A DNA stretch of 64,000 nt from Candidatus Poribacteria bacterium (GTDB lineage Bacteria > Poribacteria > WGA-4E > WGA-3G): NCBI GenBank assembly GCA_009841255.1, contig VXMD01000050.1, positions 17,533-81,532 of the forward strand, given 5' to 3'. Below, in pieces: positions 1,827-40,000 of this stretch. Within the stretch, counting starts at the first letter, position 1. Each line of letters begins with the position of its first letter. The notes beneath the pieces were generated by a model. The model did not search any database. It saw nothing but the letters and a program-made list of their open reading frames with translations, and had not been told where the DNA came from. The position numbers were made by a program, and so were the translations under genes.

Positions 1827-1939
1827 AACCGTAGTCCGTAATGTAATGGAGGGGTTTTTGCTTGGGTGTTTCCCCTAGATATACGTAAAGGAACGTCAAA
1901 CCTGAAACCTACCTGCCCGAACCGCAAGGTAAAATTAAA
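1827..1939 (+). repeat. leader-type intergenic element (degenerate copy) ending CCGCAAGGTAAAATTAAA-ATG of the DUF58 gene
   Basis: Shares CCGTAG(T/C)CCGTAA...GGAGGG and the terminal CCGCAAGGTAAAATTAAA with the other copies. Confidence 0.5.
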
Positions 1940-3295
1940 ATGCACTTAAGCAACCGTCTCCTCATCTTCTTACTTATAGTTGCCGTTCCGATTGCGCTTA
2001 GCGGTGTTTCACCGAATCTGTTATTCGTCGGGGGAGCCTATATCGTGGTGCTTTTCGTCGTCAGTGCCGTGGATTACCAGACCAATCCACTTTTAAAAAG
2101 CATCGAAGTTCACCGAGAGATGAATTCCAAATTTTCGTTAGGCGTGGAGAACGTCGTGACGCTGAAGGTCATCAATCGCTCGCGCCATCAGCTCAAAGTG
2201 CGTCTCAAAGACGATTTCCCCGACGAGTTCCTGTTCGATGCGGTTGTCCACGACCGCTATGTTTCCGCGATGGACCAGACGGATATATCGTATCGTCTGA
2301 CACCCCTACGGCGAGGAATTTATCGGTTCGTAGATATACATCTGCGGTGTCAAGGGATCCTGGGACTTGTCGTCCGACAACGGCGTATCCAAGCGGCGAC
2401 GGAAATAAAAGTCTATCCGAACCTGCAAGCGATCCGACAATATGAACTCTTAGTGAAGCGTGGGATGCTCCATCAGATCGGACTCAAGAATTCACGGCGA
2501 TTCGGGGAAGGCACGGAGATGGAGCGACTCCGTGAGTATTTTCCTGATGACGATTTCCGTTGCATGGATTGGAATGCCACTGCGCGGCAACGGAAACCGA
2601 TTGTTCGGGAATTTGAGACCGAACGGAGCCAAGATGTCGTCATTATGGTGGACACTGGGAGGCTCATGGCATCGCCGATCCTTTTAGAGACGTCCAGGCT
2701 ACCTTCTACGGAGGCAACATCGCAAAAGGCGATGCTGAAATTGGATTATGCCATTAATACGACTTTGATGACAGCGTATGTCTCGACGCTCAAGGGGGAT
2801 AAGATTGGGTTGATCGCTTTTGCGGATACCGTTCATCAATACCTTGCGCCGAGGCCCGGCAAAAAGCAGTTTCTCACGATGCTGGAGGCGATCTATGCAC
2901 TCCCTGTCCATGCGGTTGAACCGGATTTTGAAGCGGCATTCAAGTATCTCGCCGCAAAGCAGCGAAAACGTGCGCTTATCATCCTATTTACGGACATCTT
3001 GGATAGCGATTCTGCTGAGGGGATCGCCGCCTATGTGTCGCAACTCTCTAAGCGTCACCTTGTTGCTTGTGTGACCTTGACAGACTCCGGTATCGTTGAA
3101 TTGGCGCAACAGAAGTCTACGGATTCCAAGTCAGTCTATCAGAAGGCAATCGCTGAGCGGTTGTTGCAGGAGAAACATGCAACATTAGAGATCCTGCGGC
3201 GTCGAGGGGTCATCACGATTGATGTCCCTGCGCATCAGTTGACAATGGCGGTGGTGAATAAGTATCTGGAGTTGAAAGCGAAGTCTCAAATTTAA
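1940..3295 (+). CDS. DUF58 domain protein (vWA-like MoxR partner)
   Basis: N-terminal TM helices. Central DUF58 and vWA-like region (VIMVDTG). Located immediately after MoxR. Confidence 0.8.
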   Translation: MHLSNRLLIFLLIVAVPIALSGVSPNLLFVGGAYIVVLFVVSAVDYQTNPLLKSIEVHREMNSKFSLGVENVVTLKVINRSRHQLKVRLKDDFPDEFLFDAVVHDRYVSAMDQTDISYRLTPLRRGIYRFVDIHLRCQGILGLVVRQRRIQAATEIKVYPNLQAIRQYELLVKRGMLHQIGLKNSRRFGEGTEMERLREYFPDDDFRCMDWNATARQRKPIVREFETERSQDVVIMVDTGRLMASPILLETSRLPSTEATSQKAMLKLDYAINTTLMTAYVSTLKGDKIGLIAFADTVHQYLAPRPGKKQFLTMLEAIYALPVHAVEPDFEAAFKYLAAKQRKRALIILFTDILDSDSAEGIAAYVSQLSKRHLVACVTLTDSGIVELAQQKSTDSKSVYQKAIAERLLQEKHATLEILRRRGVITIDVPAHQLTMAVVNKYLELKAKSQI

Positions 3296-3337
3296 GCAAG
3301 TTTAAGTATTAACGTTCAAGTTTTGCATCCCTAACCG

Positions 3338-3420
3338 GGTTGGAAAGTTGGAAGATGGGAAGGGTGGAAGATAGCGAATATGATGTTTCTTCCAATCTTC
3401 CTGTGCTTCCATCCTTCCTC
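3338..3420. repeat. GGAAG/CTTCC-rich long imperfect palindrome downstream of the DUF58 gene
   Basis: GGTTGGAAAGTTGGAAGATGGGAAGGGTGGAAGAT ... TCTTCCAATCTTCCTGTGCTTCCATCCTTCC. Possible terminator or REP-like element. Confidence 0.45.
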
Positions 3421-3445
3421 AAAACTTAACATTGATTTTTTTATA

Positions 3446-3600
3446 TTGCTTAAGCAATTTTCGGTATTAAATATGCACATTGTCTGTCGATGATGGGCGG
3501 GGAAACCCTAGGGGAAACACCCAAGCAAAAACACCCTACGGGGTCCGCACCCATCAGAAAGGCAGAAAAATTGTAATTTATTATTTAATATTGCTTAATG
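3446..3600. mobile_element. MITE-like intergenic element with terminal inverted repeats TTAAGCAAT / ATTGCTTAA
   Basis: Near-identical to 29344..29460, apart from a roughly 30-bp internal insertion whose reverse complement recurs at 1849..1878. Confidence 0.55.
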
Positions 3601-4548
3601 TGCTTTCGCTGCAAAGAGGTAGGTGAACAGTAGGATCCCTGTCAAGGCACCGAATCCGATTTTGACGGAGGGGAGTAGGCTGGAAGGCGACACAAAACCC
3701 TCAATAATCCCCGCAACGACGAGTAAGGCAACGCAGCCACCGAGCAGTTGAATCGCTGTTCTCGCGGCGTCCGTCAACGTCCGTTTCCGCGTGAAGTGCG
3801 ATGGGGCGATGAGTGCGTATCCTAATTTCAACCCGGCACCGCCAGCAATGAAAATCGTTGTGAGTTCGATATAACCGTGCGGCGATACAAACGACCAGAG
3901 TGCGAGCGCAACCCCATTGGTATGACACAGACCCGCGACAGCACCGATGGCAATGCCGTTGAGAACTAAAATGTAGGCGGTACCTACCATGAATATGATG
4001 CCGCCAGCAAAGGCTAAAAACGCGACCCGAATGTTGTTCGTCATTACGAAAGATGCGAATAGATTCCGATTTTCTGTTGAGGTATCGTTCCATGCACCGT
4101 CCTCTAATTCTTTGATGTGAGACACGAAGTGTTCAGGGACGAGTTGTTCCGCAAGTTCAGGCGTATTTAGAGCGATCCAGTATGCGGCTGCAAATGAGAG
4201 GGTGAACATCAGGAACGCTACGCCGATGAAGTTGAGGTTTTCACGGAATACTTTCGGGAAACCGAAAAAAAGAAACCGACGAAGTGAGCCACGCTTGAAA
4301 GGGGCGGTTTGGTAGACTGCGGCGTGTGCGCGGGATGTAAGGGCGTTGAGATAGGAGACGCACGGATCTTGTGGGAAATCACGTCGGGCGACCGCTAAAT
4401 CGGACGTAACGCGACGGTATAGATACCCAAGCCGATTGAGTTGATTCGTACTCGCACCGCGTGAACGGTTGAGGAGTGCCTCAAGTTCGTCCCAAGATTT
4501 CTGTTTTTTGGCAATGAATTCTGTTGCGGTCATGGTTAAATTAAACAC
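3595..4548 (-). CDS. SpoIIM-like (DUF95) polytopic membrane protein
   Basis: Multiple hydrophobic helices. Convergent partner in the MoxR/DUF58/RDD cluster. TAA stop. Confidence 0.6.
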   Translation of the reverse strand: MFNLTMTATEFIAKKQKSWDELEALLNRSRGASTNQLNRLGYLYRRVTSDLAVARRDFPQDPCVSYLNALTSRAHAAVYQTAPFKRGSLRRFLFFGFPKVFRENLNFIGVAFLMFTLSFAAAYWIALNTPELAEQLVPEHFVSHIKELEDGAWNDTSTENRNLFASFVMTNNIRVAFLAFAGGIIFMVGTAYILVLNGIAIGAVAGLCHTNGVALALWSFVSPHGYIELTTIFIAGGAGLKLGYALIAPSHFTRKRTLTDAARTAIQLLGGCVALLVVAGIIEGFVSPSSLLPSVKIGFGALTGILLFTYLFAAKAH

Positions 4549-5395: not shown

Positions 5396-5424
5396 TTGCC
5401 TAAATATGGGAACTTTGCTAAAAT
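5396..5424 (+). promoter_or_regulatory. sigma70-like promoter TTGCCT-17-TAAAAT for the LamG gene
   Basis: Spacing is exactly 17 nt. Located about 85 nt upstream of ATG 5510. Confidence 0.45.
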
Positions 5425-6474: not shown

Positions 6475-7788
6475 TTACTGCCCGAGGCGTTCCAGCATTT
6501 TGCGGGCGTTTTGGTTCTGCGGGTCCAAGCGTAGCACTTCTCGGAATTCACGAATAGCCCGATCTTCCTCGCCGAGTTTGTAGTAAGCGGTTCCCAATGC
6601 CCCATGCGTTAGCGCATTGTCCGGATTGCGTTGAAGTGCTTTTTGAAAGCAAGAGACGGCTTCATCGTACTCCTGTTTCGACAGCAAAATTATGCCGAGG
6701 TGATGCAGAGCACTTTCATCTGAAGGATTCAGTTCAAGGATAATGCGGTATCCGATTGCGGCTCTATCATACATCCTCTTTTGCCAATAAATCTGTGTCA
6801 AGTTTCGGTGGAACTCGATGTTTTCAGGCGCAATCTTAATCGCTTTTTGGCAGTGGCGAATCGCCGCATCAAGGTCTCCAGTTCGCCGGTAGATGACCCC
6901 AAGCCCACCGTAAGCATCGGCGAAATTCGGTTCGAGTTGGATCGCTGTTTGATAGGCGGCACTCGCTTTTTCGATCTTACCCTCATGATAGTAAGCGAGT
7001 CCTAAATTGTAGTGGCTTTGGACTTTTAAATCGGTGGTTTCTGTTGGATTCCGGGGTGTGTTCTCCGTGTCGTGGATAACCGTCAATGTGTTCTCTAAAA
7101 CAGCAATGGCTTCACTATATTGCTTGTTGAGCAGGCGCGCGATTCCGTAATTGAGCCAGAGATGCGGGTCCTTATTAAGCCCCGATATTGCCACCTCCAG
7201 TTCACTGACCGCGCGCTTGAAGTCCCCTTGTTGTAGGTATCGGTTTCCACGTTCAGCGTAGCGTTGTGCTGTTACGCCGAGTTTCAGGACATCCCACCAC
7301 CGTGGATCGTGCATCTGTGTGTATTTTGTTCGTTTGCGTGAGGCTTGCGCATGTTGGGTAGCGGCAGCCGTTTCTCCGAGAATCCTCGCAATTTGTGCCA
7401 TTGCGGCGTGTGCTTCGCTCTGTTCTGGATTGAGTTTCAAGGCGCGTTGCAAGTGGCTTTGCGCCGTTTCAAACTGTTGGGTGGCGAGTGCGAGTTCACC
7501 GAGCCATAAAGAGGCATACGGGTTCCGAGGATCCAATTCGTTGGCGGTTTCGAGGTGTACTTTCGCTTGCTGTAGGTGTCCGAGGCTTCGGAGGGCAGCG
7601 GCATGGTAGATATGAGCGGGTGCATAGTGCGGGTCGAGTTTGATGGCTTCAGCAAGCGTTTGGGCAGCGGCTTGTGGGTTGACTTTATAGGTGGTCAACC
7701 CGAGGTAGTATAACCAGTGGAATTCGGTGGGCGCAATCTCGACGGCACTTCGGTAACACTGAGCGGCTTCCACCTCCCAGCCGTGCAC
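6475..7788 (-). CDS. TPR repeat protein (as called from a GTG start; the TPR motif continues upstream across an in-frame TGA)
   Basis: About ten TPR units. The start codon at 7786-7788 is GTG. The residues just upstream (GQLGNIYF) already fit TPR positions 5-12. Confidence 0.7.
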   Translation of the reverse strand: MHGWEVEAAQCYRSAVEIAPTEFHWLYYLGLTTYKVNPQAAAQTLAEAIKLDPHYAPAHIYHAAALRSLGHLQQAKVHLETANELDPRNPYASLWLGELALATQQFETAQSHLQRALKLNPEQSEAHAAMAQIARILGETAAATQHAQASRKRTKYTQMHDPRWWDVLKLGVTAQRYAERGNRYLQQGDFKRAVSELEVAISGLNKDPHLWLNYGIARLLNKQYSEAIAVLENTLTVIHDTENTPRNPTETTDLKVQSHYNLGLAYYHEGKIEKASAAYQTAIQLEPNFADAYGGLGVIYRRTGDLDAAIRHCQKAIKIAPENIEFHRNLTQIYWQKRMYDRAAIGYRIILELNPSDESALHHLGIILLSKQEYDEAVSCFQKALQRNPDNALTHGALGTAYYKLGEEDRAIREFREVLRLDPQNQNARKMLERLGQ

Positions 7789-8073: not shown

Positions 8074-8805
8074 CTATATGACATACGGTTCGGGGTTGCG
8101 CTCGACCTCTGCCAAAAGCGTATCCACATACGTCTCAATGTGGAACAACCGACACATGGAATCTCCTACCTTTCCTTGTCTCAACTGACTGAGTCCTTCC
8201 CAAAACGCCCCGAGTTCTGGTCGTTTCAGACGGATATATTCCGCCTGTGGATCGTCGGCAAGACGGTTGTTCCAATGGATAACCTCAACGAGATGGATGT
8301 AGGTCGAGGTCTCGTAATCGACACCGATCATGAGAAGTTTAGCGTTCGTCTTATAGGCACGGAACATCGGTGAATGCGTGCCGTAAGTCTTTCCCCACGG
8401 GTAATGATCCCACGGTGATTCGTGGCCTTCGCGGCGACGGTGATCAGACACAAACGCCTTTGCATCTCTCCCGCGAGCGGCAACGGCGTGCGAATAGTGG
8501 TCAGAGCGATAGGTGTCGGGCATCTGTCGAAAAAATTCTGTCAGCCAACCGACTGTGGACGGCGTCTGGTTGACATTCCATGCTGCGACACGCTCTTCCC
8601 GACTCGATAAAAGGCTGAAGGTCGGCATCAGAATCAGTCCTTCCGCCCCGACTGCCGCTTCTAATGCCGTGATGACTGTCCCTGCTCCACCTTCGACAGG
8701 TCCGAGACTCTTGAAAGATGAATGGATAAAGAGTGTATCTCCTTTTTCAATGCCGAGGTCGGTAAAATCTTCGGTGAGTTTTTCGTGGATATAAGGTGTT
8801 TGCAT
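8074..8805 (-). CDS. aminoglycoside N(3)-acetyltransferase family protein (AAC(3)-like)
   Basis: LFIHSSFKSL, GLILMPTFS and LLMIGVDYETSTYIHLVE blocks align with AAC(3) proteins. 243 aa. Confidence 0.7.
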   Translation of the reverse strand: MQTPYIHEKLTEDFTDLGIEKGDTLFIHSSFKSLGPVEGGAGTVITALEAAVGAEGLILMPTFSLLSSREERVAAWNVNQTPSTVGWLTEFFRQMPDTYRSDHYSHAVAARGRDAKAFVSDHRRREGHESPWDHYPWGKTYGTHSPMFRAYKTNAKLLMIGVDYETSTYIHLVEVIHWNNRLADDPQAEYIRLKRPELGAFWEGLSQLRQGKVGDSMCRLFHIETYVDTLLAEVERNPEPYVI

Positions 8806-8827
8806 TTTCAGGAATTTTAAGTTTTAA

Positions 8828-10006
8828 TCAAGGATGCAAGGTTTTACCGTAAACAGCACTATATTTTTGAACCAATTCGACGATTCTTCCTGCGTTTTCC
8901 CTTCGCATCCGCTTCGCGACTCGCAGTGGGGTCTGCCCTTTCCGGTTCTTGACGTTCGGGTTTGCGCCTTTGATGAGCAACGCTTCCAACGCCGATCGTT
9001 GTTTTTCGCCACTCTTTATTGTCGATCGGATCGCCTCAAACAGTGGGGTTTCGCCGTCGTTGTCAAGGGCATCAAGGTCCGCCCCGTTTTCGATGAGCAG
9101 ATTGATGACGTTGAGGAAACCCGCCTTCGCTGCATAATGTAACCCCGTTTTCCCTTTATAATTCTGAATATTAATGTCGGCACCCAGTGCTAACAGTTGC
9201 TGGATTTCGTCTGGATGTTCGCCGTTGTCGCCACGGCAGGCATAGACGAGTGGGGGCCAACTCTGATTTTCTGCGTTTATATCCTTGGACGGGACGCCGT
9301 GCGCCTTGAGGAGCACGCTCATTTCGGAGTCGTCGTCCAAAATGCGCGGGGCTTTACTCGGATCCGCCCCGTTTTCGAGTAACAACTTGGCAATCTCCAC
9401 CCGATCGTACGCGACGGCATAATCGAGGAAACGTTCGCTGTGCGGTTTGATTGTCGCCCCGCGTGAGATGAGCAGGTCCACAATCGCGGGGTTTCCGCCC
9501 ACGATGGCATAGCAGAGCGGTGTCGCCCACGCCGCGTGACGGTGTTCAAAAGTATGGGGTTGCCCTGCCGGTAGCATTACTGCCTGCAGGTATCCACTGT
9601 TGATGGTATCTGGGTCATTATTGAGATGCGCTCGGACGGTATCGTAATCTCTGAGATAGGCGGCGGTATGGATGTCGAGTGTCGCGCCGTGCTGAAACAG
9701 ATAGTCCGCTACGAGATCGCGCCCCTCATACCGTGCGACGCAGTAGGGGGTTATCTCAATCCTGTGCTGGATATGATAGCAACCCGGCAAGTTTATATCG
9801 GCACGGCGTTCGAGGAGGAATTGAACCATCTCCAGTTTGCCCCGATATGCGGCTTCCCACAACATCGTCCGACCGTGTGAACCGACGGTGTGAATCCACG
9901 CCGGATTGTCATCGACCAGTAGTCGGACGGTTTCAAGATCCCCGCGTCCTGCCGCGGCGACAACAATTTTCAGGAAATCACTCTGGTTTCCAGTGAGGTT
10001 TGGCAT
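8828..10006 (-). CDS. ankyrin repeat protein
   Basis: About ten ANK repeats with the G-TPLH..A...G motif. Confidence 0.85.
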   Translation of the reverse strand: MPNLTGNQSDFLKIVVAAAGRGDLETVRLLVDDNPAWIHTVGSHGRTMLWEAAYRGKLEMVQFLLERRADINLPGCYHIQHRIEITPYCVARYEGRDLVADYLFQHGATLDIHTAAYLRDYDTVRAHLNNDPDTINSGYLQAVMLPAGQPHTFEHRHAAWATPLCYAIVGGNPAIVDLLISRGATIKPHSERFLDYAVAYDRVEIAKLLLENGADPSKAPRILDDDSEMSVLLKAHGVPSKDINAENQSWPPLVYACRGDNGEHPDEIQQLLALGADINIQNYKGKTGLHYAAKAGFLNVINLLIENGADLDALDNDGETPLFEAIRSTIKSGEKQRSALEALLIKGANPNVKNRKGQTPLRVAKRMRRENAGRIVELVQKYSAVYGKTLHP

Positions 10007-10011
10007 TGGCT

Positions 10012-10767
10012 TTAGCCTTCATCTATGACGTAGGGGCGTCTACCCACGGAGGGCGGCAGGAGCATCCGTTTCTGTTGTTCCGTGAGTTCGCCGTATTTGC
10101 TGAGGTCGTGATATTCTCCCGACCATGCGGAGTGTCCCGGACTGTATTTGTAGAGCAGGGAGCGGCGTTGATGTTTTGCCCGCCACGGCATCGTCCCATG
10201 AACAAGCGCTTCAGTGAAGAACAACACATCTCCCGCTTCGACAGGCGGTTGCACGACGTAGTGTGCCGGACGCTCGAAATGCTGCACATCCGACGGTAAG
10301 TCCCGCAAGAAATTGCTCTTGTGGCTGCCCGGAATACAGGCGAATCCGCCCGCGCCTTCTGGTGCATCTGCCAAATTGTAGGTCATCACAGACAATCCGT
10401 TGCGCATAACACCATCGCGGTATTTGTACCAGTGATCCGCCTCAGGACCGCCGGGTCCACCCCCATCTTCACCGCCGTGTAATCTACCGCCTTGTTGCCC
10501 TTCATCCATAAAGATGGTATAATCGTGGTCGAGACGGACGTGCGGACCTAATAACTCGAGGAGATACGGAAGAATCTTCGGATGGTCAATCAGACTCTTA
10601 AAGGGTTCACCCCACAGACTCGACACTCGCTCGCCGTGTCCTCTCAATCTCTCGCTGGATTCGCTATCGATAAACGCATTCATCTCAGCGACTTCGTCCT
10701 CGGTCAAGATGTTCTTTATGACGAGATAGCCTTGAAGGTCTACCTGAAATTTTTCTTCGCTGGTCAT
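10012..10767 (-). CDS. phytanoyl-CoA dioxygenase (PhyH) family protein
   Basis: PhyH fold motifs. HxD...H iron ligands are plausible. The conserved leader element abuts the ATG. Confidence 0.75.
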   Translation of the reverse strand: MTSEEKFQVDLQGYLVIKNILTEDEVAEMNAFIDSESSERLRGHGERVSSLWGEPFKSLIDHPKILPYLLELLGPHVRLDHDYTIFMDEGQQGGRLHGGEDGGGPGGPEADHWYKYRDGVMRNGLSVMTYNLADAPEGAGGFACIPGSHKSNFLRDLPSDVQHFERPAHYVVQPPVEAGDVLFFTEALVHGTMPWRAKHQRRSLLYKYSPGHSAWSGEYHDLSKYGELTEQQKRMLLPPSVGRRPYVIDEG

Positions 10768-10860
10768 TTTTTAATGTTTCCTTGCGGAGAAACAACGTGC
10801 GTTAAGACGCTTAGATGCGTTGCTTATATCCGCCCTCCATTCCATTACGGGCTACAGGTT
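10768..10860 (-). repeat. leader-type intergenic element abutting the ATG of PhyH gene 10012..10767
   Basis: The minus-strand reading ends ...AACGCACGTTGTTTCTCCGCAAGGAAACATTAAAAA-ATG. Confidence 0.6.
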
Positions 10861-10942: not shown

Positions 10943-11677
10943 CTAACCTGCCTCAATAACCGGGGGTCTTCTACCGACGGACGGCGGCAGGAGCATCCGT
11001 TTCTGTTGTTCCGTCAACCCTTCGTATTTACTGATGTCGTAATAGTGTTCCGACCATGCCGAGTGTCCCGGACTGTATTTATAGAGGAGGGAACGGCGTT
11101 GGTGTTCCGCTGTCCACGGCATCGTCCCGTGGATGAGTGCTTCGGTGAAAAACAGCACGTCCCCGGCTTCGAGTGGTGGTTGGACGACATAGTGTGCCGG
11201 ACGCTCGAAACGTCGCACGTCTGTTGGGAGGTCTGTCGGGAAATTGCACTTGTGGCTCGCTGGGATACAGGCAAATCCGCCCGCTCCCGCTGGTGCATCC
11301 ATCAGATTGTATGTCATCACGGACAGTCCGTTGCGCATGTGTCCATCTCGGTATTTATACCAGTGGTCCCCGACACCTCCACCGGCGCGTCCGCCGTCCT
11401 CGCCGCCGTGTAATCCACCGCGCCCTTGCCCTTTCTCCATGAAGAGGGCGTAGTCGTGGTCGAGTCGGACATGTGGACCCAGCATTTCGATGAGATACGG
11501 CAAGATGTTCGGGTGATCGATGAGTCTCCTGAACGGTTCACCCCAGAGACTCGGTGGTCCCTGGAGGTCGCCTTTGTCGATGATAGCGTTCATCTCAGCG
11601 ACTTCATCGTCGGTCAGCACGTTCTTTATGACGAGGTAACCCTCGAGATCCACTGCAAATTTTTCTTCACCAGTCAT
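10943..11677 (-). CDS. phytanoyl-CoA dioxygenase (PhyH) family protein, tandem paralog
   Basis: About 75% identical to 10012..10767. Same leader motif before the ATG. Confidence 0.75.
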   Translation of the reverse strand: MTGEEKFAVDLEGYLVIKNVLTDDEVAEMNAIIDKGDLQGPPSLWGEPFRRLIDHPNILPYLIEMLGPHVRLDHDYALFMEKGQGRGGLHGGEDGGRAGGGVGDHWYKYRDGHMRNGLSVMTYNLMDAPAGAGGFACIPASHKCNFPTDLPTDVRRFERPAHYVVQPPLEAGDVLFFTEALIHGTMPWTAEHQRRSLLYKYSPGHSAWSEHYYDISKYEGLTEQQKRMLLPPSVGRRPPVIEAG

Positions 11678-11710
11678 TTTTTAATGTTTCCTTGCGGATA
11701 AGTGATGTGG
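11678..11710 (-). repeat. 3'-terminal part of the leader-type element abutting the ATG of PhyH gene 10943..11677
   Basis: Reads ...TCCGCAAGGAAACATTAAAAA-ATG. Confidence 0.5.
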
Positions 11711-11921
11711 TTCGTGATTTGAAGATTTCGGTGTTTGAGTCGCCTGCGTGTTTTTGCGAATCAACGCTGGATTTAGTCTAACCCCAGACTAAATCCGGTA
11801 TTTCTGTGTATTGTTGCAGGCTTACGGACCTGGGTGTACCAAAACCCTCTTAACTGGTAACTGAAAACTGACAACTGAAAACTATTCCTTATTATAGCAT
11901 TACCGAAATATTTCGTAAACG

Positions 11922-13876: not shown

Positions 13877-16800
13877 TTAGCGAATGTCTAACGCTGGCAG
13901 GTTGTTAACGATGTCTACTGTCTCCAAACTTACTGTTATCACCTTCGCAATCAACTTGACGATATACTGCGGATCGTCGATACGGTTCGGATTGTTGACG
14001 ATACCGCTCCGTTTATCCGTTTTCACGCGATACTGGTCTATTACCCACTCTAACGCCGAACGGGTGCCAAGTCGATAGCCGAAAGTCTTTGTGGGAATAC
14101 CCGAGATCGTTAGGAAGTTGTTATAGACAAGCGAGGCTTTGTCTTTTGAGAGTTTCATTTTCTCAACGCGCCAATCGAGCGGGACTTCCTGGTTCTGAAT
14201 GAATTTGAGATCGCTATATTCAGGTTGGGATTCGTAGTTGACGTGGAGATCTGATAGCCGCGCACCTGCCTTCGCAAATTCCCAGAAATCATTGACGAAG
14301 GGGATATGCGGGAGATCGCGTTTGAGGTTGGCGGCATACTTCTCACGGTAGTCGGGATGGTGTAGGATGCCGTAGTTGTAGTGGAAGATGTCCCACTTGG
14401 TGATGGTATTGTCTTGATAGTGGGTTCGGAACTGTGTCAATGCCCAATCGGTGATGTTTTCTTGGCGGTTTGTGCCATCCTCGTCGTAGGTGTAGAAGGG
14501 AAAGCATTGAGAACCTCCCTGTGGCAACTGATCGGGTAATTGGTTGACCATCAGTCCAAACATCGGCCACTCTTTGCCAACTTTAAGCCATATCACCCGA
14601 TTTTCCGTTTCTGTATAAAGCGTGGGAAAAATAGATGGAAATACGGCAACTACATCATTCATTGTTCGGTCAAAGTAGAGGTTGGATTTTGTAAACGGAC
14701 GATAGAGGGCTGTTCTTACCTTGTGCTCAGTATATTCGGACGTTGTGCCTCGCTCTAATTTCACTTTTAAATCACGACTCCACTTAATCTGTGTGTCCTC
14801 GGAAACCACAAAGTTATCAAGGTCAACATTGCGATCTTTCCGCTGCGTCCAGCGGGCGACCTCAGCGTTATAGGTTTCATTCATGCGGTCCACATTCGTA
14901 ATAAGCGTGTTTCGGTCGAAATTGTAAGCCCAGGCATCACGATTGGTTTTTACGCCGTTGCTATAGGTTTTAAAGATCACATCTGTAGGATCATCTTTTA
15001 CCATCTTTGCTGCCTTACTTCCCATCGGAATAAAGGTGTCAAATTCGGCATAGAGCCCTTCGGTAAGCCACGTATATCGCGCATCCGGTTGAATGTTTTG
15101 CCATTCAATTCTGCCTGCGTGCTCCCGTTCATTTAGAAAATCGAACTTCTGTTTCCTGTTCCACAAATCATCTGTACAGTAGTAAAAAATACGAGGTGAT
15201 TTGGACAGATGCCGCTTATTCTTCACGAACAGGTTGATACTCACACCGACACGAATCCCAAACACATTCGCATCGGAGACCTTCAATCCTTTCCGGGCAT
15301 TTCCTCCTAAATCCAGAATATAAATCGCGTCACAATCCTCAGCGAGATGTTTCCGCATGCCGTCAAATGCAACTCCGTCAAGGAAACTGTTGTTCGTTAC
15401 GAAGGCGACAACTCCCTCATCGCCAATTCTATCCAAAGCCCATCGGATGGCTTTGACATACGGATCGTAAAGTTTATTTCTCAGGGTCGCTTTGGAGTCT
15501 TTCGCGTAAGTGTCCGCGATCCGTTCGTTCATCGTCTCATAGTGCCGATTCTTGTTGTTGTCGTTTTCGTTGACTTGTCCTGCGTTGTAAGGTGGGTTGC
15601 CGATAATCACAAACATCGGTGTCTGCTTCTGCTTCTCAACACGTTCTGTATTGGCAGGCGTAAACATCTGTATCTGTCGTTCTTCTGCCATCTCAAACGT
15701 ATCTACCAGACAGATACCTTCATACGGAGCGTATCGGTGCGTTGCGGCGTAAAACTGTTGTTCTATGTTGAGACTGGCGATGTAGTAGGGCAGCAGCATC
15801 ACCTCGTTGCACTGGAGTTCCGGCGGATTCGCAGTGTATTTTCGCTCTAACGAAATAGGATCGAGTTCCTGCATGACACGCACGATGAAGTTACCCGTGC
15901 CGACAAACGGATCAATGATATTCACGCCGCTTTCTGAGAGTGATCGATTAAACTCGGTCTGTAGGATATGTTCAACGCTTTTCACCATAAAGTCGACAAT
16001 CGGCTGCGGTGTGTAGACGATACCGTGTGTATCAGCGACCTTGACGGAGAAGCCTTGAAAAAACTGCTCGTAGACAGCATTGAGGAATCCCTGTTTCTGT
16101 GAGAAATCCGTGATAGTCGCCGCCGTTTTCTCAATCGCAACGTAGAACGGATCCAAGCTCTGAAGAAACTGGTCACGATTCAGGGCATGCTCCGTCAGCA
16201 CATCAACCACTTTCTCGATGTCTCTGGCAATGATGTTACGTCGCGTGAAATCGCGGTTCTTGAAAACGGTCGCGAAAATTCGCTCTGTCAGGAGATGTTG
16301 AATGAGCATCTCCTCTACAGCGGCAATTGCGAGGTTTGGATTAATGGAGGCTTGGCACTGCTGATGAAAGTTGCTGAACGCCTCTCGGAAGTGTGGATTG
16401 TTTTGACGTTCTGTTTCGATGAGTGCTGCCAACTTTTCGCCGAGTTCCGGCACCGTCTCTCTGAATTCGGAGACTGCCGCGTGCCATGCCGAAATATTCG
16501 CCTCCTGATACGCGAAGAAAGTCTGTAGCATACGGACAAGGTTTCTCGGATCGGTGATATCCACATCGAGTTGTAGCTGCCCATCCTGATAGAGGAGCGC
16601 GTGGGTCGGTGACTGCACAACAATATTTTTTGACGGATAGCCTGCAGCAAACTTCTTGGACGCTTCACTATGGAGGTCGTCTTGTGTATCTTTCGCTTCC
16701 CAATAGCCGTGTGGCAGTCCGAAGGCATCGACGACTTCACCATCCGGTCGGATGTGTCTGTAACCGCCTTGGGTCGTTGTATCATCTGCAGCGCGTGTCT

Positions 16801-16969
16801 TTTCACAGAGCAGTGTAAAATCGGATTGGTGGCAATAGTGTTGAAGGAGATTTTGGAATGCGGCACGGACGGTGCCTTCGTTTTCTTCACCCAGTTGCGC
16901 GTATTTTTCCAGTTCGGCGTAGTAGGTCTTGATAGGTTTATGCGTAGGCTTGATGTTCAGATCGGACAT
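13877..16969 (-). CDS. MmeI-family single-polypeptide type IIL/IIG restriction-modification enzyme
   Basis: N-terminal PD-(D/E)xK nuclease motif (RPDGEVVD...YWEAKD). Central gamma-class N6-adenine methyltransferase motif IV GNPPYN. Long C-terminal target-recognition region. 1030 aa. Confidence 0.7.
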   Translation of the reverse strand: MSDLNIKPTHKPIKTYYAELEKYAQLGEENEGTVRAAFQNLLQHYCHQSDFTLLCEKTRAADDTTTQGGYRHIRPDGEVVDAFGLPHGYWEAKDTQDDLHSEASKKFAAGYPSKNIVVQSPTHALLYQDGQLQLDVDITDPRNLVRMLQTFFAYQEANISAWHAAVSEFRETVPELGEKLAALIETERQNNPHFREAFSNFHQQCQASINPNLAIAAVEEMLIQHLLTERIFATVFKNRDFTRRNIIARDIEKVVDVLTEHALNRDQFLQSLDPFYVAIEKTAATITDFSQKQGFLNAVYEQFFQGFSVKVADTHGIVYTPQPIVDFMVKSVEHILQTEFNRSLSESGVNIIDPFVGTGNFIVRVMQELDPISLERKYTANPPELQCNEVMLLPYYIASLNIEQQFYAATHRYAPYEGICLVDTFEMAEERQIQMFTPANTERVEKQKQTPMFVIIGNPPYNAGQVNENDNNKNRHYETMNERIADTYAKDSKATLRNKLYDPYVKAIRWALDRIGDEGVVAFVTNNSFLDGVAFDGMRKHLAEDCDAIYILDLGGNARKGLKVSDANVFGIRVGVSINLFVKNKRHLSKSPRIFYYCTDDLWNRKQKFDFLNEREHAGRIEWQNIQPDARYTWLTEGLYAEFDTFIPMGSKAAKMVKDDPTDVIFKTYSNGVKTNRDAWAYNFDRNTLITNVDRMNETYNAEVARWTQRKDRNVDLDNFVVSEDTQIKWSRDLKVKLERGTTSEYTEHKVRTALYRPFTKSNLYFDRTMNDVVAVFPSIFPTLYTETENRVIWLKVGKEWPMFGLMVNQLPDQLPQGGSQCFPFYTYDEDGTNRQENITDWALTQFRTHYQDNTITKWDIFHYNYGILHHPDYREKYAANLKRDLPHIPFVNDFWEFAKAGARLSDLHVNYESQPEYSDLKFIQNQEVPLDWRVEKMKLSKDKASLVYNNFLTISGIPTKTFGYRLGTRSALEWVIDQYRVKTDKRSGIVNNPNRIDDPQYIVKLIAKVITVSLETVDIVNNLPALDIR

Positions 16970-17197
16970 CTATGTTCTCCGTGTGTTGTGGGTATCAGAG
17001 CGATACCCCATTATACACGGAGGCGTCCGAAATTGCGAAGAGAATTTTGCGATAGAAACAAGTAGACCTCTCAGTGAAATGTAGGTGTGAAAACGAGTTG
17101 TGGTTCCAAACCGCTTTTGACTTTTGCCGAAAAACGTGACATGATACCTGTCCTAAGCCCTCAATTCTGCAACGGATGGATATTTACGAAATGTGCA

Positions 17198-18046
17198 CTA
17201 CTTATGACAAATCAAACACGGTTCCTCGTCATCTTCGTCGTCATGGACATCGGTGAGGATATCTATCAGACGGCGATTCGGTTTTGCTGTTTTCTTGGAT
17301 GCCATCGCTTTTTCGGTGTTTGCCTTGATTTGTGCTATCCGTTTTGGATCCGACAACTCCTCTAAACTTTCGCCTTGGCACCATGTGAACTGTTCACCTG
17401 TCTCTGGATTGGATTTCTCGTATTCCTTGGCGAGTTCGAAGAGATTTGGATGCTGCTCCAATAATCCGACCCACTCGGATTTGCGCTGGAAGAAACAGAA
17501 ATAACATCCGGAGCGCGTCCGCCACTTATAATAGTCAGGTAGACCGACTCCACTTTCCTCCAGAATTCGGTAGACATCCGCTTTAGTAATGCCATCTTCT
17601 TTAAAGGGGTATTTCGGTTCGATGTTGCGGAGCGAGGAGGTCTGTGGCGGTTTGTAGCCAACGCGATCTTCATCTGCACGAATGGCGATGTAGTGATACG
17701 CTTTGTCTTCACCTACATATTCTTCAAAGGGTCTTATTTTGAGGTTGACAGTGCACCAACGGACTTGAGAGGATGGCAGTAAGCCGCCGTAAAGCGTCAA
17801 CCAGTGGTCGAAATCTCGGTTCTTACTGTCATCGGAATCCATGTTGAGGCGCACAATCGGTTTGCCGAGAAGTGCTTCTAACCGGTCCAAAAACGCATAG
17901 GTCTCTGGCAATTCTTTACCGGTATCGGAAAAGAAGTATTCCATCTCTGGCACCCTGTCCCGCATGTAAACTGCAAGGGCAGAGCTATCTTTTCCTCCAG
18001 AAAGCCCGAGGAGATGACGTGTTTTTTGTCCCATACTTCCTCCCAA
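17198..18046 (-). CDS. PAPS reductase-like PP-loop ATP pyrophosphatase (DndC/SspD/BrxP-like)
   Basis: PP-loop LSGGKDSS and RWCT motif. C-terminal cysteine clusters CYFCFF and CLICHK. Confidence 0.8.
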   Translation of the reverse strand: MGGSMGQKTRHLLGLSGGKDSSALAVYMRDRVPEMEYFFSDTGKELPETYAFLDRLEALLGKPIVRLNMDSDDSKNRDFDHWLTLYGGLLPSSQVRWCTVNLKIRPFEEYVGEDKAYHYIAIRADEDRVGYKPPQTSSLRNIEPKYPFKEDGITKADVYRILEESGVGLPDYYKWRTRSGCYFCFFQRKSEWVGLLEQHPNLFELAKEYEKSNPETGEQFTWCQGESLEELSDPKRIAQIKANTEKAMASKKTAKPNRRLIDILTDVHDDEDDEEPCLICHK

Positions 18047-18104
18047 GGTGAATTCTTTATTGAGAACTTTTACATTTTAATCATAGCACGTATCTGCCAA
18101 GATG

Positions 18105-21100
18105 TCAAGTTGTTCTTTTCTTTTCAGATTCCTGCATCAGCTTTTGTGAGATGCGCCCTAAAACCGCAAGACGAAATTCAGGATTTCCATCCGTATCAAT
18201 TTCGTTAGAAGCTTTCTCAATTGCGCGTTCCAATTTATCTGCTTGTTCCTCGGAAGTTGAAGGCAAAATGACAACCTGTTCCTGTTCGAGGTGTTTAGGT
18301 CTCGTAACGCCGACACGAATTAGTTCACCTGCTGGTAATTCAGTATGATCCCATTTTTCGTAAGACACCGCTTCGAAATGCCGAAATTTCCTTGCGGTTT
18401 GAGACAAGTTGATCTCAAATTGAGCTTTGTCCATGTCGGTCCAAGATGCCGGTGGTCTTTTGGTAAGATAGGTTGCTATTGCCTCAAGCCAACTGGTAAA
18501 ATCATATCCACTGCTACAGGTTCGAATTAAAAATCCTTTAAACTCAGTTTCGATTACTATTTCTAATAAGGGCTCAGCTTTGGTGACCAATTCTGTTCGA
18601 AGTTCTTCTTTCTTCGGTGTCAAATTGAAGGCTTTCGCGAGCAATTGCTCAATGAAGTTCAGCAGCACTTCGTAAGCCTGCTCTAACTCGGACAGAGCAT
18701 CTTGCAGTGTAGTGAAGAAATCCGAAACAATCTTTGTATCTGTTGCTGTTTCTGTGCCAAAGGCAGGAAATCCAAGTGCTTCAGGCAATTGATTAAAAAG
18801 GAGTTCGTCAGGTTCACGCGCATTCAGAACAGTTTCCCTTACATTTTTTGATGCGTCACTCAATTCTTGTGTTGTTAGTACATACTTTGGCAGTTGTGCT
18901 ATAGAGTGTATAAGCGGCGTAATGGCCGTCAATAAATCAGAATTTTCAGTTGCGACCGGTTGATCGAGCATCTCCAAAAATTGTGCTAACAGATCCGCGC
19001 GAATACCGACTATCCGAAAACATTTCAGTTCAAATTGTTGAGGCACTTTGAGTAATCTTTCAAAAACTGGCATTGACCAGCCTGGTATAAAAGAGCCGTT
19101 TTCATAAAGGGCGATTTCGGTTTTGTGATGCAGCATCGTGGCACACAAAAGAATAGACAATGGACCATTTCGAACGCCGAGGGGAGGCGACATCAAACGT
19201 TCATAGAGGCGGATAACGGGTTGTCGCTCACCTTCACATTCGCTAAGAAACGTCTCGATCGCTTGCCATGTGTGTACTATTCTACTTTTATCATCTGGAT
19301 GTGGGGGATGGAATCCCCATACACCTCCAACTTCGCGGTGTATCCCCGTGTTCCATAAGAGGGAGCGGTAGATGCTCATTTGAGGAGGATAGCTTTTGAT
19401 GTCAAGATTGTTCTTGTCACCATTTTCAAGCATGGCTTTAATCAAGTGCTTTCTTGCTGTTGTTGCGGCACCAGAAATTTCCCGTCGGTTGATCAATTCA
19501 TTCTGAATAATGGGGGTTTTATCATATATCTCATCACATATTTTTGAGAGGTAAGTATTTCTCGCGCGTTGAGAATTAATGTTTACGGGTTGTCCCTTGT
19601 GGTACCATGTACAAGCCCCTTTACTGTCCTCGCCAAATATTGCTGTTAATCTATCAGATGCTTCTTTCTCCGCTTGTACCTGTTGTGCTGAGAGTTCATC
19701 TCTCGCTACCGCGTCACCATCTAACTCGGGTGTATGTTCGGCTACCCAACGTAAACTAGCGAGTTGACAGACAGCGTCTTGCAGAGTACCAATGGGGTGC
19801 GGAATTGCAATCAATACCTCTTTGCGTTCTATTAGTTTGGTGCTACTCGCCTTTTTACTTAGTTGATTGGCTTCGTGTTCGTTTGTGGGTAGGGCATAAA
19901 GTACAAGTCCATCTGCATCGTCAACAGGTTTTTCTATATCCGTATCGAAGTTTTCGAGGTCGGTGTACTGAACGGCAAAGTATCGCAAGGTGCCAGTTTC
20001 AAATAAGTGCCTTCGTGCGACAAGCGGACGCGTCGGCAAATAACGGGACAGATCAGTGGAGAGAGAACCTTGTGTGTCAATATGCCTTTCTGCTTCTCGG
20101 AGTTTTGCCTCGAGGTCGACGTCACTCCCTTCCCAAATCGCATAAGCCTTATTATAAAGACGGTAGATAGCAATTGAGCGGTCTTGCAACGTAGCAAGTG
20201 ATGTCTCAAATTCATGGGCAAACTTGTCCGTTTTATCATCTAATGCGTAACGGAGCATCGACTCTGAAGCTTTCAAATTTGGAACCGCTTCACCAACGAT
20301 GCCGAGTATCCCAATCGTTTTAATCAGCTTGGCTGACATAGCAGACGAGTCTGACAATCGACCTATTGCCAATTCAGTTTCTGCCCACTTCTTGCTATTG
20401 TGTGAGATATACAGACGGTTTCCCATATTAGTTTTGAGGTAATCGTACAGATCGGCAATTGAGAACAGGGGCAGTGTATCTTTGTTGTAATGTTGATTAA
20501 AAAGAAAGTCTTGGAATCCGTGAGGTTCGCTTGAGCTGAGAAAGGCAAAGAGGGAGCGTTCGTTCTGACCGAATCGCCGGAAGATCGAATCTATAACAAG
20601 TACCACAGTCGGATGGAGTGGAAGACAGTTTCTCAGAAGTTCGCTGAATTCGTCCTCGGTAAGTTGGCTTGGCTTTAGGTCAAATTTAATAGGTAAAGAT
20701 AAATTTTCTTCCTTACCTTCTGGGGTCCGTTCAATAGCGGTGCTAATCAAACGGAGTACCTGCTCCGTAGGTTCTACAAATGCTATATCCTCGAACCTTC
20801 CCTGTATCTTTGCCCACTCTTCCTGTTGTGATTTGGCTAATTTGTTTGCATATTGCTCAAAAGCTTGATGCAGAATCGTCAGCAAAAGCAGTGGAGTTTG
20901 CTGGTTACTTCGTGTAGCGAATTCAGCAAGGGTTTGTAGCACAAATACATCACCTTGTGCAGGATTTTGTGCAGCATACTCAAGAAATTTTCCAAGTTCA
21001 TCAATCACTAATAACAAACCCTGTCCGCCGTTTTTCTCGATAGTGCGCGTTGCAGACTCAAAAAGGTTCGTGATTTCAGAGGCTTGGAGGGACGTGTTAT

Positions 21101-21608
21101 TCACAGCGATTTGCAATAGTTTTCTGATCTTACGTGGGAGTGAACTATTAGACGGTATTCCGAAAGTCTTGAGTCCATTCTCTAAACCGCGCAGAAGGGC
21201 GATTGGTAGAGGGGCGCGCTCTCCAGAGATAAGCACAGGACAAAATCCGGATAGCGACCAATTTCCGTTACGCTTTGTATCCATAAATTGCTCATATAGT
21301 GTGATATCTCCATCATTTAATACTTTTAAGGCCTGTTGAGTTGTAACTGCCTCAGGATCCCCAAGAAGTTTCGCTGCGAAAAGTGCGAATGCTGATTTTC
21401 CCGACCCATAGGGACCGGTGAGCGACCATGCTTTCGATGTTGTCTCATTTTCGGGCGTCGCGAGGATACGCGATAACATCTCTCGCGCTGTGACAGTCAA
21501 AATGTATCCATCTAAGGCGTTCTCTGTATAGAAATCGCGTTCCAGATGAACCGAACGCCTAAAACGACCTTTAATCTGGAAAAATTTTGACAAGGGGGTG
21601 TTATCCAT
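18105..21608 (-). CDS. large P-loop NTPase (DUF499/SspC-like), 1167 aa
   Basis: Walker A TGPYGSGKSAF about 70 aa in. Walker B LLLVIDELGKF. Long helical C-terminal region. 8-nt overlap with the upstream DUF4007-like gene. Confidence 0.6.
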   Translation of the reverse strand: MDNTPLSKFFQIKGRFRRSVHLERDFYTENALDGYILTVTAREMLSRILATPENETTSKAWSLTGPYGSGKSAFALFAAKLLGDPEAVTTQQALKVLNDGDITLYEQFMDTKRNGNWSLSGFCPVLISGERAPLPIALLRGLENGLKTFGIPSNSSLPRKIRKLLQIAVNNTSLQASEITNLFESATRTIEKNGGQGLLLVIDELGKFLEYAAQNPAQGDVFVLQTLAEFATRSNQQTPLLLLTILHQAFEQYANKLAKSQQEEWAKIQGRFEDIAFVEPTEQVLRLISTAIERTPEGKEENLSLPIKFDLKPSQLTEDEFSELLRNCLPLHPTVVLVIDSIFRRFGQNERSLFAFLSSSEPHGFQDFLFNQHYNKDTLPLFSIADLYDYLKTNMGNRLYISHNSKKWAETELAIGRLSDSSAMSAKLIKTIGILGIVGEAVPNLKASESMLRYALDDKTDKFAHEFETSLATLQDRSIAIYRLYNKAYAIWEGSDVDLEAKLREAERHIDTQGSLSTDLSRYLPTRPLVARRHLFETGTLRYFAVQYTDLENFDTDIEKPVDDADGLVLYALPTNEHEANQLSKKASSTKLIERKEVLIAIPHPIGTLQDAVCQLASLRWVAEHTPELDGDAVARDELSAQQVQAEKEASDRLTAIFGEDSKGACTWYHKGQPVNINSQRARNTYLSKICDEIYDKTPIIQNELINRREISGAATTARKHLIKAMLENGDKNNLDIKSYPPQMSIYRSLLWNTGIHREVGGVWGFHPPHPDDKSRIVHTWQAIETFLSECEGERQPVIRLYERLMSPPLGVRNGPLSILLCATMLHHKTEIALYENGSFIPGWSMPVFERLLKVPQQFELKCFRIVGIRADLLAQFLEMLDQPVATENSDLLTAITPLIHSIAQLPKYVLTTQELSDASKNVRETVLNAREPDELLFNQLPEALGFPAFGTETATDTKIVSDFFTTLQDALSELEQAYEVLLNFIEQLLAKAFNLTPKKEELRTELVTKAEPLLEIVIETEFKGFLIRTCSSGYDFTSWLEAIATYLTKRPPASWTDMDKAQFEINLSQTARKFRHFEAVSYEKWDHTELPAGELIRVGVTRPKHLEQEQVVILPSTSEEQADKLERAIEKASNEIDTDGNPEFRLAVLGRISQKLMQESEKKRTT

Positions 21609-28119: not shown

Positions 28120-29213
28120 ATATGCACAAAAAGCCTTTACACGAACACTACCAAGATTTTCGGGACGCGTTGTTGGCGTGGTTTGACGTGTATCAGCGCG
28201 ATATGCCGTGGCGACGGACCGGTGATCCTTACCGGATTTGGGTGTCTGAGGTGATGCTCCAGCAGACACAGGTCAAGAAGGTCGTGGAATACTATGAGCG
28301 ATTTATCGAGCTGTTCCCCAATGTGCAACACTTGGCAGCTGCACCGCTGCAAGATGTCCTGAAGGTGTGGGAAGGTCTGGGGTATTATGCGAGGGCACGG
28401 AATCTCCACAAAGCGGCACAGGTCGTTGTAGATGAACTGGACGGGAAGATACCTGAGGATTATGCGGGTTTTCGGAAGTTGCCGGGTGTCGGGGATTACA
28501 GCGCGGCGGCGGTGCAGAGTATCGCTTTTAATGCACCATACGCCGCTGTGGATGGGAACATTAAACGCGTGCTGGCACGCCTGTTCCTGATGGAGTCGCC
28601 GATTAACGACGCCAAGTCAGCGAAGGTGTTTCAGCAGAAAGCGGATGCGCTTTTGGACGTGAATGCCCCTGGATGCTTCAATCAGGCGATGATGGAGTTG
28701 GGGGCAACCGTGTGTCGTCCGCAATCCCCGACGTGTCTTGTGTGTCCCGTGAATTCGTTTTGTGCGGCGTTCCGGACGGCACGTCAAGACGAGTTTCCGT
28801 ATCGGCGCGAGACGAAACCTGTTCCGGAACACCATCTCGCTGTCGGGGTTATCTATAGGGACGAGACGGTTTTACTCACACAGCGGCAACTGGACGGTTT
28901 GCTCGGTGGGCTTTGGGAGTTTCCGGGCGGACAACTCGCCGAGGGTGAGACTGCCGAGGCGGCTTGTGTTCGGCATATCGCTGAGGTCGTCAACCTCTCT
29001 GTCACCAATGTGCGGTATCTCACGCGGGTTAGGCATGCTTATACGCATTTCAAGGTGGTTGTAGATGTGTTTCAGTGCGATTATCAGGCGGGTGAGGTCG
29101 TGCTGAAGGGGCCGCGGGATGCGAAGTGGGTCGCGGTTACGGCACTAAAGGAGTATCCGCTCCCGCGTGTGACGCATAAGTTTTTGGAAGAATTGATTGC
29201 GGATGGAACGTAA
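28116..29213 (+). CDS. mutY: A/G-specific adenine DNA glycosylase
   Basis: HhH-GPD domain. 4Fe-4S cluster loop CRPQSPTCLVCPVNSFC. C-terminal NUDIX-like domain. Confidence 0.9.
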   Translation: MNMHKKPLHEHYQDFRDALLAWFDVYQRDMPWRRTGDPYRIWVSEVMLQQTQVKKVVEYYERFIELFPNVQHLAAAPLQDVLKVWEGLGYYARARNLHKAAQVVVDELDGKIPEDYAGFRKLPGVGDYSAAAVQSIAFNAPYAAVDGNIKRVLARLFLMESPINDAKSAKVFQQKADALLDVNAPGCFNQAMMELGATVCRPQSPTCLVCPVNSFCAAFRTARQDEFPYRRETKPVPEHHLAVGVIYRDETVLLTQRQLDGLLGGLWEFPGGQLAEGETAEAACVRHIAEVVNLSVTNVRYLTRVRHAYTHFKVVVDVFQCDYQAGEVVLKGPRDAKWVAVTALKEYPLPRVTHKFLEELIADGT

Positions 29214-29343
29214 TGATTGTTTGTAGTCGCGCAATGGTGCACGTCGCGTGTGGACTTACGGGACACTGCGCCTTGAAACGTGCGATGAATCGCACGACTA
29301 CGAACTTAAACTATCTGGTAGAATTATGGTGAAGAAAGATGCG

Positions 29344-29460
29344 GTTAAGCAATTTTCGGTATTAAATATGCACATTGTCTGTCGATGATGGGCGGGGAAA
29401 CCCCGCCCCTACGGGGTCCACACCCATCAGAAAGGCAGAAAAATTGTTAATATTGCTTAG
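29344..29460. mobile_element. MITE-like intergenic element, second copy
   Basis: Same terminal inverted repeats. Internal perfect hairpin GGGCGGGG-AAA-CCCCGCCC. Confidence 0.55.
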
Positions 29461-29502
29461 ATGAAGATTAAGAATTTAATTCGGTAATTCCCCAAAGATG
29501 CC

Positions 29503-29523
29503 GGTGCGGTTACAAACCGCACC
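29503..29523. repeat. REP-like short hairpin GGTGCGGTT-ACA-AACCGCACC
   Basis: Same architecture as the 27039 copy with two compensatory base-pair changes. Flanked by the 10-bp inverted repeat TCGGTAATTC / GAATTACCGA. Confidence 0.5.
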
Positions 29524-29611
29524 TATCGGGTCTGGAGAAAGCACAGAATTACCGAAATATTTATTTAAACTCCATGAAACCGCACCGACCGTGTTTTATG
29601 ACGGGTAGCCT

Positions 29612-39987: not shown

Positions 39988-40000
39988 GTGGTAAAATTAA

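Follow-up and report, generated by a model that had tools for sequence, protein, structure and literature searches.

A probable non-autonomous DNA transposon (MITE) family of Candidatus Poribacteria with TA-flanked insertions

Introduction

The Correia/NEMIS elements of Neisseria duplicate a TA upon insertion and occur in full and in internally deleted size classes. Both size forms are also found in the family described here, which we call element B. Non-autonomous DNA transposons of this kind (MITEs) have been defined by terminal inverted repeats (TIRs), flanking direct repeats, the lack of a transposase, a stable fold and the existence of empty and filled sites (PMC3184786; PMC11602168). For Nezha, a cyanobacterial MITE, mobility was inferred from empty and filled orthologous sites and from a stable predicted fold (PMC3184786), a parallel to the reasoning applied here to B. 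REP sequences, which will be met below, are known insertion targets (PMC3184786). A full-text literature search found no earlier description of MITEs in Poribacteria, an uncultivated phylum of sponge and coral symbionts.

The window, that is, the whole 64-kb stretch of DNA analysed here, had been reported in a preliminary description to contain two copies of a MITE-like repeat, one of them with an insert shared with a third locus. Here we define the ends of this element, compare its insertion sites with those of relatives (loci L001 and following) and weigh the explanations for its spread.

Results

The two repeats of the window, B1 (copy 1, 3450-3598) and B2 (copy 2, 29345-29460), are real. 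Positions 3450-3508 and 29345-29403 are 100% identical over 59 nt and positions 3534-3574 match 29407-29447 at 98% over 41 nt, so that the near-identity first reported for 3446-3600 and 29344-29460 holds apart from two indels. These are a 22-25-nt apex segment and an 11-nt stretch of the right arm (AATTTATTATT), both present in B1 alone of the two. Probes of 25-29 nt with up to three mismatches found exactly two copies in the window, B1 and B2, where 0 were expected. The stretch comprising B1 and its neighbor, element A, occurs identically in L005, a scaffold of a second sample, and B2 occurs in L003, from another sample, which shows that they are not assembly artefacts. Due to the 59-nt identity between B1 and B2, Logan contig L007 (k=31) ends 30 nt into the repeat; contig ends inside B in the short contigs of other samples were rejected as evidence for more copies.

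The borders of copy 1 read TTAAGCAAT...ATTGCTTAA, the latter 9-mer occurring four times in the window against 0.49 expected, a number reached in 0 of 100 shuffles. The 9-bp terminal inverted repeats of the preliminary description are therefore correct for copy 1, but not for copy 2, where the right border ATTGCTTAG leaves an 8/9 inverted repeat, and their outer T/A proved to be flank. Indeed, this outer base is a C in L001 and a G in copy 2, which places the true ends at AGCAAT and ATTGCT, flanked by TA. Delimited in this way, B1 is a full-length copy of 143 nt (AGCAAT...ATTGCT, 3453-3595, plus strand, with TA at 3451-3452 and 3596-3597), and the span of 3446-3600 first given for it takes in its flanks. 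B2 is a deletion derivative of 110 nt (29348-29457, plus strand, with TA at 29346-29347 and 29458-29459) that lacks both the apex module and the 11-nt right-arm stretch and contains, as had been described, the perfect hairpin GGGCGGGG-AAA-CCCCGCCC at 29390-29408.

Over the four copies presented below, B is an element AGCAAT...ATTGCT of 102-147 bp with imperfect TIRs and flanking TA, in which an AT-rich arm on each side encloses a conserved G/C-rich apex. Its ends read 5'-AGCAAT(A/T)TT...AATATTGCT-3' or, with the flanks, TA-AGCAATATTG...CAATATTGCT-TA. The imperfect TIRs span about 10-25 bp. In B1, the perfect inverted repeat has 8 bp (TA + AGCAAT; 9 bp with the outer T/A) and 10/12 positions match overall, and in the L001 copy it is perfect over 12 bp (TAAGCAATATTG/CAATATTGCTTA) and then imperfect up to about 27 bp. 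Compared with the TIR length of at least 10-15 bp given for MITEs (PMC11602168), the best copy, L001, lies inside the range and the window copies are borderline; the size of 102-147 bp is within the about 50-800 bp given for MITEs, which encode no transposase. The left flank is TA in all five elements (A, B1, B2 and the L001 and L021 copies), the right flank in four of the five, with CA in the L021 copy. A 2-bp TA flank is not distinguishable from terminal bases of the element itself, and the empty site has a single TA. A 4-bp duplication of TTAA was considered and rejected in favor of TA, the better fit: TTAA agrees with A and B1, but B2, L001 and L021 each have one end with only 3/4 of its bases.

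Four copies of B were found at four non-orthologous loci in three genomes, namely B1, B2, L001 48-197 and L021 4294-4395. The L001 copy came from an exact-pattern scan of 185,579 species genomes with a 22-mer of the left arm common to three copies, which matched a single contig, in the Poribacteria MAG Plut_88880. It sits 127 nt upstream of an amidohydrolase gene, with flanks unrelated to those of B1, and is 94% identical to B1 over 95 nt, while the host proteins of a Porites lutea relative are only about 80% identical. The L021 copy is shorter and has the termini and the apex core without the long arms. An nhmmer profile built from the four copies gave E = 9e-51 to 6e-26, the L021 copy scoring at E = 5e-26, and found no further copy in 236 kb of non-redundant Poribacteria loci; L010, L011, L018-L020, L024 and L025 are free of B. 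By exact protein matches, the window belongs to ENA ERZ23491743 scaffold_59 (178 kb), from a sponge metagenome assembly. No further copy was present in an additional 16.7 kb of this scaffold, which makes 2 copies in 80.7 kb of scaffold. Two exact-pattern probes gave 0 matches in JGI metagenomes and one gave 0 matches in viral contigs. The loci in hand and the exact-pattern scans together suggest a low-copy family. Homologs of the proteins flanking the window copies are labelled Candidatus Poribacteria. The flanks of all four copies are unrelated to each other, the homology ending exactly at AGCAAT/ATTGCT. With respect to genes, B1 and B2 are located between convergent ones, the L021 copy between tandem ones and the L001 copy upstream of one.

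These additional copies change the reading of the roughly 30-bp extra segment, which had been taken for an insert gained by copy 1. The segment is present in L001 and L021 too, and L001 also has the 11-nt stretch. Being shared by three of four copies, the apex segment is ancestral; copy 1 is the full form and copy 2, having lost both stretches, a double-deletion derivative.

Empty sites were identified in relatives for three of the four loci. The cleanest pair is site 3, filled by the L021 copy (B3). In the window (5396-5410, minus strand, ATATT-TA-GGCAAAT) and in L010 this orthologous site is empty and reads ATATTTAGGCAAAT, and in L021 it reads ATATT-TA-[AGCAATATGG...GAATATTGCT]-CA-GGCAAAT. 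From this comparison, the element extends from AGCAAT to ATTGCT and its target is TA. Sites 1 and 2, filled by B1 and B2, were compared with relatives about 10% diverged and have other elements nested in them; the clean single-element case is site 3 only.

At site 1, Pfam identified MoxR and DUF58 genes upstream of copy 1, with the plus-strand DUF58 ending at 3295, and a convergent SpoIIM-like gene at 3595-4548 on the minus strand. Copy 1 stands in tandem with a second element to its left, a point absent from the preliminary description. This second element, A (3295-3450, plus strand, with TA at 3293-3294 and 3451-3452), is a single-copy palindromic element with the B-like termini AGCAAG...ATTGCT. 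These termini resemble those of B at z 5-6 against shuffles, but its hairpin core (about 3340-3420) differs from the B core. A and B1 form a block of 307 nt (3297-3603) with the composition TA-A-TA-B1-TA that is absent from relatives. The left TA of element A lies within the DUF58 stop codon (TAA, 3293-3295), and the last base of B1 together with the right TA (3595-3597) makes up the stop codon of the minus-strand SpoIIM-like gene. In the empty site, there is a 23-nt overlap between the DUF58 and SpoIIM-like genes, as seen in L010 (SpoIIM 90% identical) and in L011-L017 (80%), and in BLAST alignments window position 3296 was joined to position 3604 over only 3 nt of L010. In the reconstructed ancestor both stop codons overlap in one TTAA, and a TA duplication would therefore have left both reading frames unchanged.

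The DUF58/SpoIIM stop-stop junction as such is an insertion hot spot (window 3292-3598, L010 10931-10957, L011 10552-10574, L021 6674-6776, L024 10940-11274). Two lineages have no insert there, while three others each have a different one, namely A+B1, a piece of 99 nt that contains a REP, and a block of 335 nt whose inverted ends read TTAACGTGAGTTCGA.

The ends at site 3 can be read in another way. B may have moved as single-stranded DNA, like palindrome-associated elements of the IS200/IS605 type with a Y1 HUH TnpA. Insertion would then take place on the 3' side of a short YTA target and duplicate nothing, and the TA on the right would belong to the element as its last two bases. Site 3 agrees just as well with this reading, as ATATTTA + [AGCAAT...ATTGCTCA] + GGCAAAT, where the CA at the right end needs no mutation. 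Further points in favor are that CAATATTG, at both ends, is itself a palindrome, that the tandem A|B follows if each right end recreates the target, and that an IS605 OrfB/TnpB gene is present in a close relative (L019 1648-2739). However, the ends of B show the mutual complementarity typical of DDE elements, over 12-27 nt, there is no subterminal hairpin at each end, and a TnpA gene was seen in none of the loci. We regard this style of insertion as improbable, but keep it as the main rival mechanism to cut-and-paste transposition.

The predicted fold of B is a strong hairpin, of -55.2 kcal/mol (z -6.9) for B1 and -41.1 kcal/mol (z -4.6) for B2. Open reading frames in the copies are short (up to 49 aa, the two longest running into the flanks) and none has a database relative; the concatenated open stretches from the six frames of both copies gave nothing at E <= 0.01 in a collection of 5.8 billion proteins. 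A strong fold on both strands, the position of two copies between convergent genes, 94% conservation of left arm and apex between species and, on the minus strand, an apex that reads as a short GC stem followed by a T-run might together point to a functional RNA or DNA structure under selection, such as a small RNA, a stabiliser of mRNA 3' ends or a bidirectional terminator. The copies had indeed been suspected of doubling as terminators. They do lie after the plus-strand DUF58 and mutY genes, both confirmed by Pfam, but equally after minus-strand genes, so that these are convergent regions. A GC hairpin with T-run is absent from copy 2 (29150-29700 scanned), and copy 1 offers only two weak minus-strand sites with 5-bp stems at the apex against 0.6 expected; neither copy is a canonical terminator, and the proposed terminator role is not supported. 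A promoter-like site is absent from the element. Rfam had no match in the whole window at gathering score and, at E <= 5, none in B1, B2 or 1851-1878; the only matches nearby were to miRNA models, at the level of chance, in the element A hairpin. Compensatory changes were seen in 0 of 48 pairs over the four copies, although four sequences this similar give little power. L001 has a broken middle stem and L021 has none, and the position relative to genes varies. A mainly structural function of B thus appears quite unlikely, somewhat more so than single-stranded transfer.

At site 2, copy 2 lies between a plus-strand MutY gene that ends at 29213 and a convergent minus-strand aldo/keto reductase (AKR) gene at 29612-30565 (Pfam). 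In L020, the MutY and AKR genes overlap by 12 nt. L022 and L023 (AKR 94% identical) share window positions 29214-29331, followed by an intact hairpin GGTGCGGTTA|GAAACCGCACC and a T-run. In the window, this resident REP/terminator hairpin is split into a left half (GATGCGGTTA, 29338-29347, plus strand) and a right half with the T-run (GAAACCGCACCGACCGTGTTTTAT, 29576-29599, plus strand, hairpin arm 29576-29586) by the insertion of B2 and of a second element, C'. The location of copy 2 next to another element within a split REP hairpin had likewise been missed in the preliminary description. C' is an unrelated palindromic repeat of 115 nt (29461-29575, plus strand) with a REP hairpin at its centre (29503-29523), and it begins 1 nt after the right-hand TA that flanks B2. 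Its layout is ATGAAGATTAA..TTCGGTAATT..REP..ATTACCGAA..CTTCAT, the window entry ending in CTCCAT. Two of its three copies (window 29461-29575, L021 3121-3235 and L021 4589-4703) are within the loop of a resident REP hairpin. In L021 3100-3250, C' is found alone inside such a loop (GGTGCGGTTGG|ATGAAG). Site 2 of the window reads GATGCGGT-TA-[B2]-TA-G|ATGAAG, and removal of B2 and one TA restores GCGGTTAG|ATGAAG. Membership of C' in the B family was rejected, its termini being not above shuffles (z < 3).

Could B simply be an immobile intergenic hairpin that was copied by segmental duplication or gene conversion and lost in the relatives? Only two copies in 80.7 kb of scaffold, nearly identical, and very few in the scans of the collections would agree with this, and the preliminary description would have favored simple segmental duplication if only two copies existed genome-wide and no target-site duplication were found. 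Instead, there are four copies, two of them at other loci in other genomes, with TA on the left of each and on the right of three, their surroundings unrelated and their homology ending exactly at AGCAAT/ATTGCT. The empty sites are precise to the base with one TA kept, and the overlapping convergent genes of the relatives would be hard to reach by deletion without damage to both. We consider an immobile B very unlikely.

The MutY/AKR junction and its surroundings vary in other respects. In L019 (AKR 91% identical) this junction holds an insertion sequence (8307-9784) with a DDE_5/DDE_Tnp_1 transposase and 15-bp ends (CATAGGTGTCAATTT), and the same junction in another sample holds an internally deleted derivative of about 390 nt (L018 11081-11470). 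This insertion sequence was examined as a partner of B and rejected, as its true ends CATAGGTGTCAATTT/AAATTGACACCTATG are unrelated to those of B; GTTAATATTGC at the 3' end of its transposase gene resembles the right end of B, an 11-nt match that we treated as chance. Next to MutY, a cluster resembling a defence island (window 13877-21608; L002/L018/L020), with DUF4007, BrxC/PglY-like, PAPS reductase and Type ISP restriction-modification genes, varies in content between relatives.

The REP sequences belong to a GTAG-tagged family, GGTA-GGTGCGGTT-N3-5-AACCGCACC, with 14 matches in about 194 kb of Poribacteria loci (window 29503-29523 and the split halves 29338-29347/29576-29586; L010 2254 and 3103; seven sites in L021; L022 1584; L018 11059). 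In L022, where T6 follows it, the REP has the appearance of the MutY terminator. This family suggests a RAYT-type system in the genomes concerned. That B itself is a REPIN, an inverted REP pair spread by a RAYT (TnpA_REP) enzyme, is hardly credible despite this wealth of REPs and the long imperfect palindrome of B, given that B shares no sequence with the REP family, has neither a GTAG/CGTC head nor a GC-rich REP arm at its ends but AT-rich inverted termini with TA flanks, and has a REP as its target at site 2 and not as a component, the true GTAG-REP being another sequence.

The apex core of B1 (GGGCGGGGAAACCCTAGGGGAAACACCCAAGCAAAAACACCCTACGGGG, 3495-3545, plus strand) is conserved in L001 and L021 and lost in B2. 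It contains a 25-nt segment, CTAGGGGAAACACCCAAGCAAAAAC (3508-3532), and, as had been noted, the reverse complement of this segment occurs upstream of DUF58, where the match is exact at 1854-1878 and extends to 28 nt at 96% (1851-1878). At this place in the DUF58 leader (1851-1878, minus strand), the module stands alone, as AAACACCCAAGCAAAAAC enclosed by GGGG and CCCC, and is not part of a B element. The observation that several intergenic repeats have modules in common was right, since the 25-nt segment recurs in unrelated contexts. The core AAACACCCAAGCAAAAAC has eight occurrences in the loci, in unrelated settings that include three B apexes. The DUF58 leader has the module in reverse orientation in the window, in forward orientation in the ortholog L010 (12362-12382) and as a variant in L021 (8225-8255). 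A further occurrence lies within the L019 insertion sequence (8628-8650) and its deleted derivative (L018 11402-11424), and L001 has the module in a second place (7651-7690); the one in the B1 apex is at 3513-3535 on the plus strand. Direct repeats of 6 nt (ACGCAG, ACCTAC and ACCCTA) border the module in three independent contexts, and in others it makes up the loop of a short G/C stem. We see a small chance that the 18-20-nt module AAACACCCAAGCAAAAAC(AC), with at least six independent contexts, is a unit of its own, over and above its place in the MITE. Candidates would be a very small insertion, templated or mobile, and a conserved loop for protein or RNA recognition that was captured by different repeats.

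The Logan contigs L007, L008 and L009, from three independent assemblies, all start at window position 1856, within the solo module upstream of DUF58. A 25-nt repeat is too short to account for this shared break at k=31, which likely reflects strain variation at the DUF58 leader. A leader-type repeat that ends in TGAAAC...CCGCAAGGTAWAATTAAAA directly before the ATG of many genes is conserved in relatives and was found in the window at 1903-1940, 35545-35641, 35659-35755 and 39995-40091 on the plus strand and at 10764-10830, 11674-11740, 41375-41441 and 59651-59717 on the minus strand. Possible roles are those of a shared promoter or translation-initiation region. Another repeat array, at 44210-45121, consists of four 228-nt units in tandem, with 68-79% identity to the reference copy, in a minus-strand dockerin-domain ORF (43799-45391).

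Discussion

Element B has terminal inverted repeats, flanking TA dinucleotides, four copies at non-orthologous sites in three Poribacteria genomes and precise empty sites, which bears out the MITE-like nature proposed for it in the beginning. Its features match the published definition (PMC3184786; PMC11602168) and are, in this sense, those of a MITE-like element. We therefore think it probable, with good though not full confidence, that B is a non-autonomous DNA transposon of Candidatus Poribacteria, a new family of a known kind in a neighbourhood rich in other small palindromic repeats. The 64-kb window encodes no transposase, and no autonomous partner with matching ends was present among the loci examined, where the insertion sequences of L019 have unrelated ends.

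As to the mechanism of transposition, the class of enzyme and the order of events, we infer the following scheme. B would insert at a TA dinucleotide, often within TTAA, and leave TA on both sides. A DDE transposase of the cut-and-paste type, acting in trans, would produce such flanks, and the TA flank, the one feature that links B to this group, suggests by analogy an enzyme of the IS630/Tc1-mariner type. B1 and the related element A may have landed one after the other at the TTAA of the overlapping DUF58/SpoIIM-like stop codons. B2 would have landed at a TA in the loop of the REP/terminator hairpin, 1 nt from the inserted C', and would later have been shortened by the apex module and by 11 nt in the right arm.

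The picture that emerges is one of convergent genes with overlapping ends that were pushed apart by stacks of small palindromic elements, the same two junctions holding different elements in different lineages. This helps to explain contig breaks in short-read assemblies of these symbionts and offers strain markers. It also calls for caution before hairpins of the B type are annotated as terminators or small RNAs. A new mechanism is not revealed.

Among known systems, the Correia/NEMIS elements show many parallels to B. They, too, are non-coding elements of roughly 100-160 bp with TIRs, TA flanks and long hairpins, lie in intergenic positions near gene ends and have no known cognate transposase. 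Sequence similarity is absent, however; the perfect TIRs of B have 8-12 bp compared with about 26 bp, and the copy number is apparently low in B compared with >100. Promoters, an IHF site and RNase III cleavage are features of Correia/NEMIS, to be set beside a B that is known from sequence alone. Bacterial MITEs derived from IS630/Tc1-mariner elements insert at TA with an apparent TA duplication and have short TIRs, as B seems to; the possible link to B is through the TA flank, and no IS630-family transposase or insertion sequence with matching ends was found in the loci examined. Nezha shares its TIRs with the insertion sequence ISNpu3, whereas B is without a known partner. Finally, the location of B2 and C' inside a REP hairpin loop recalls insertion sequences that target REP hairpins, such as IS1397 and IS621, although B itself is neither a REP nor a REPIN and has TA flanks.
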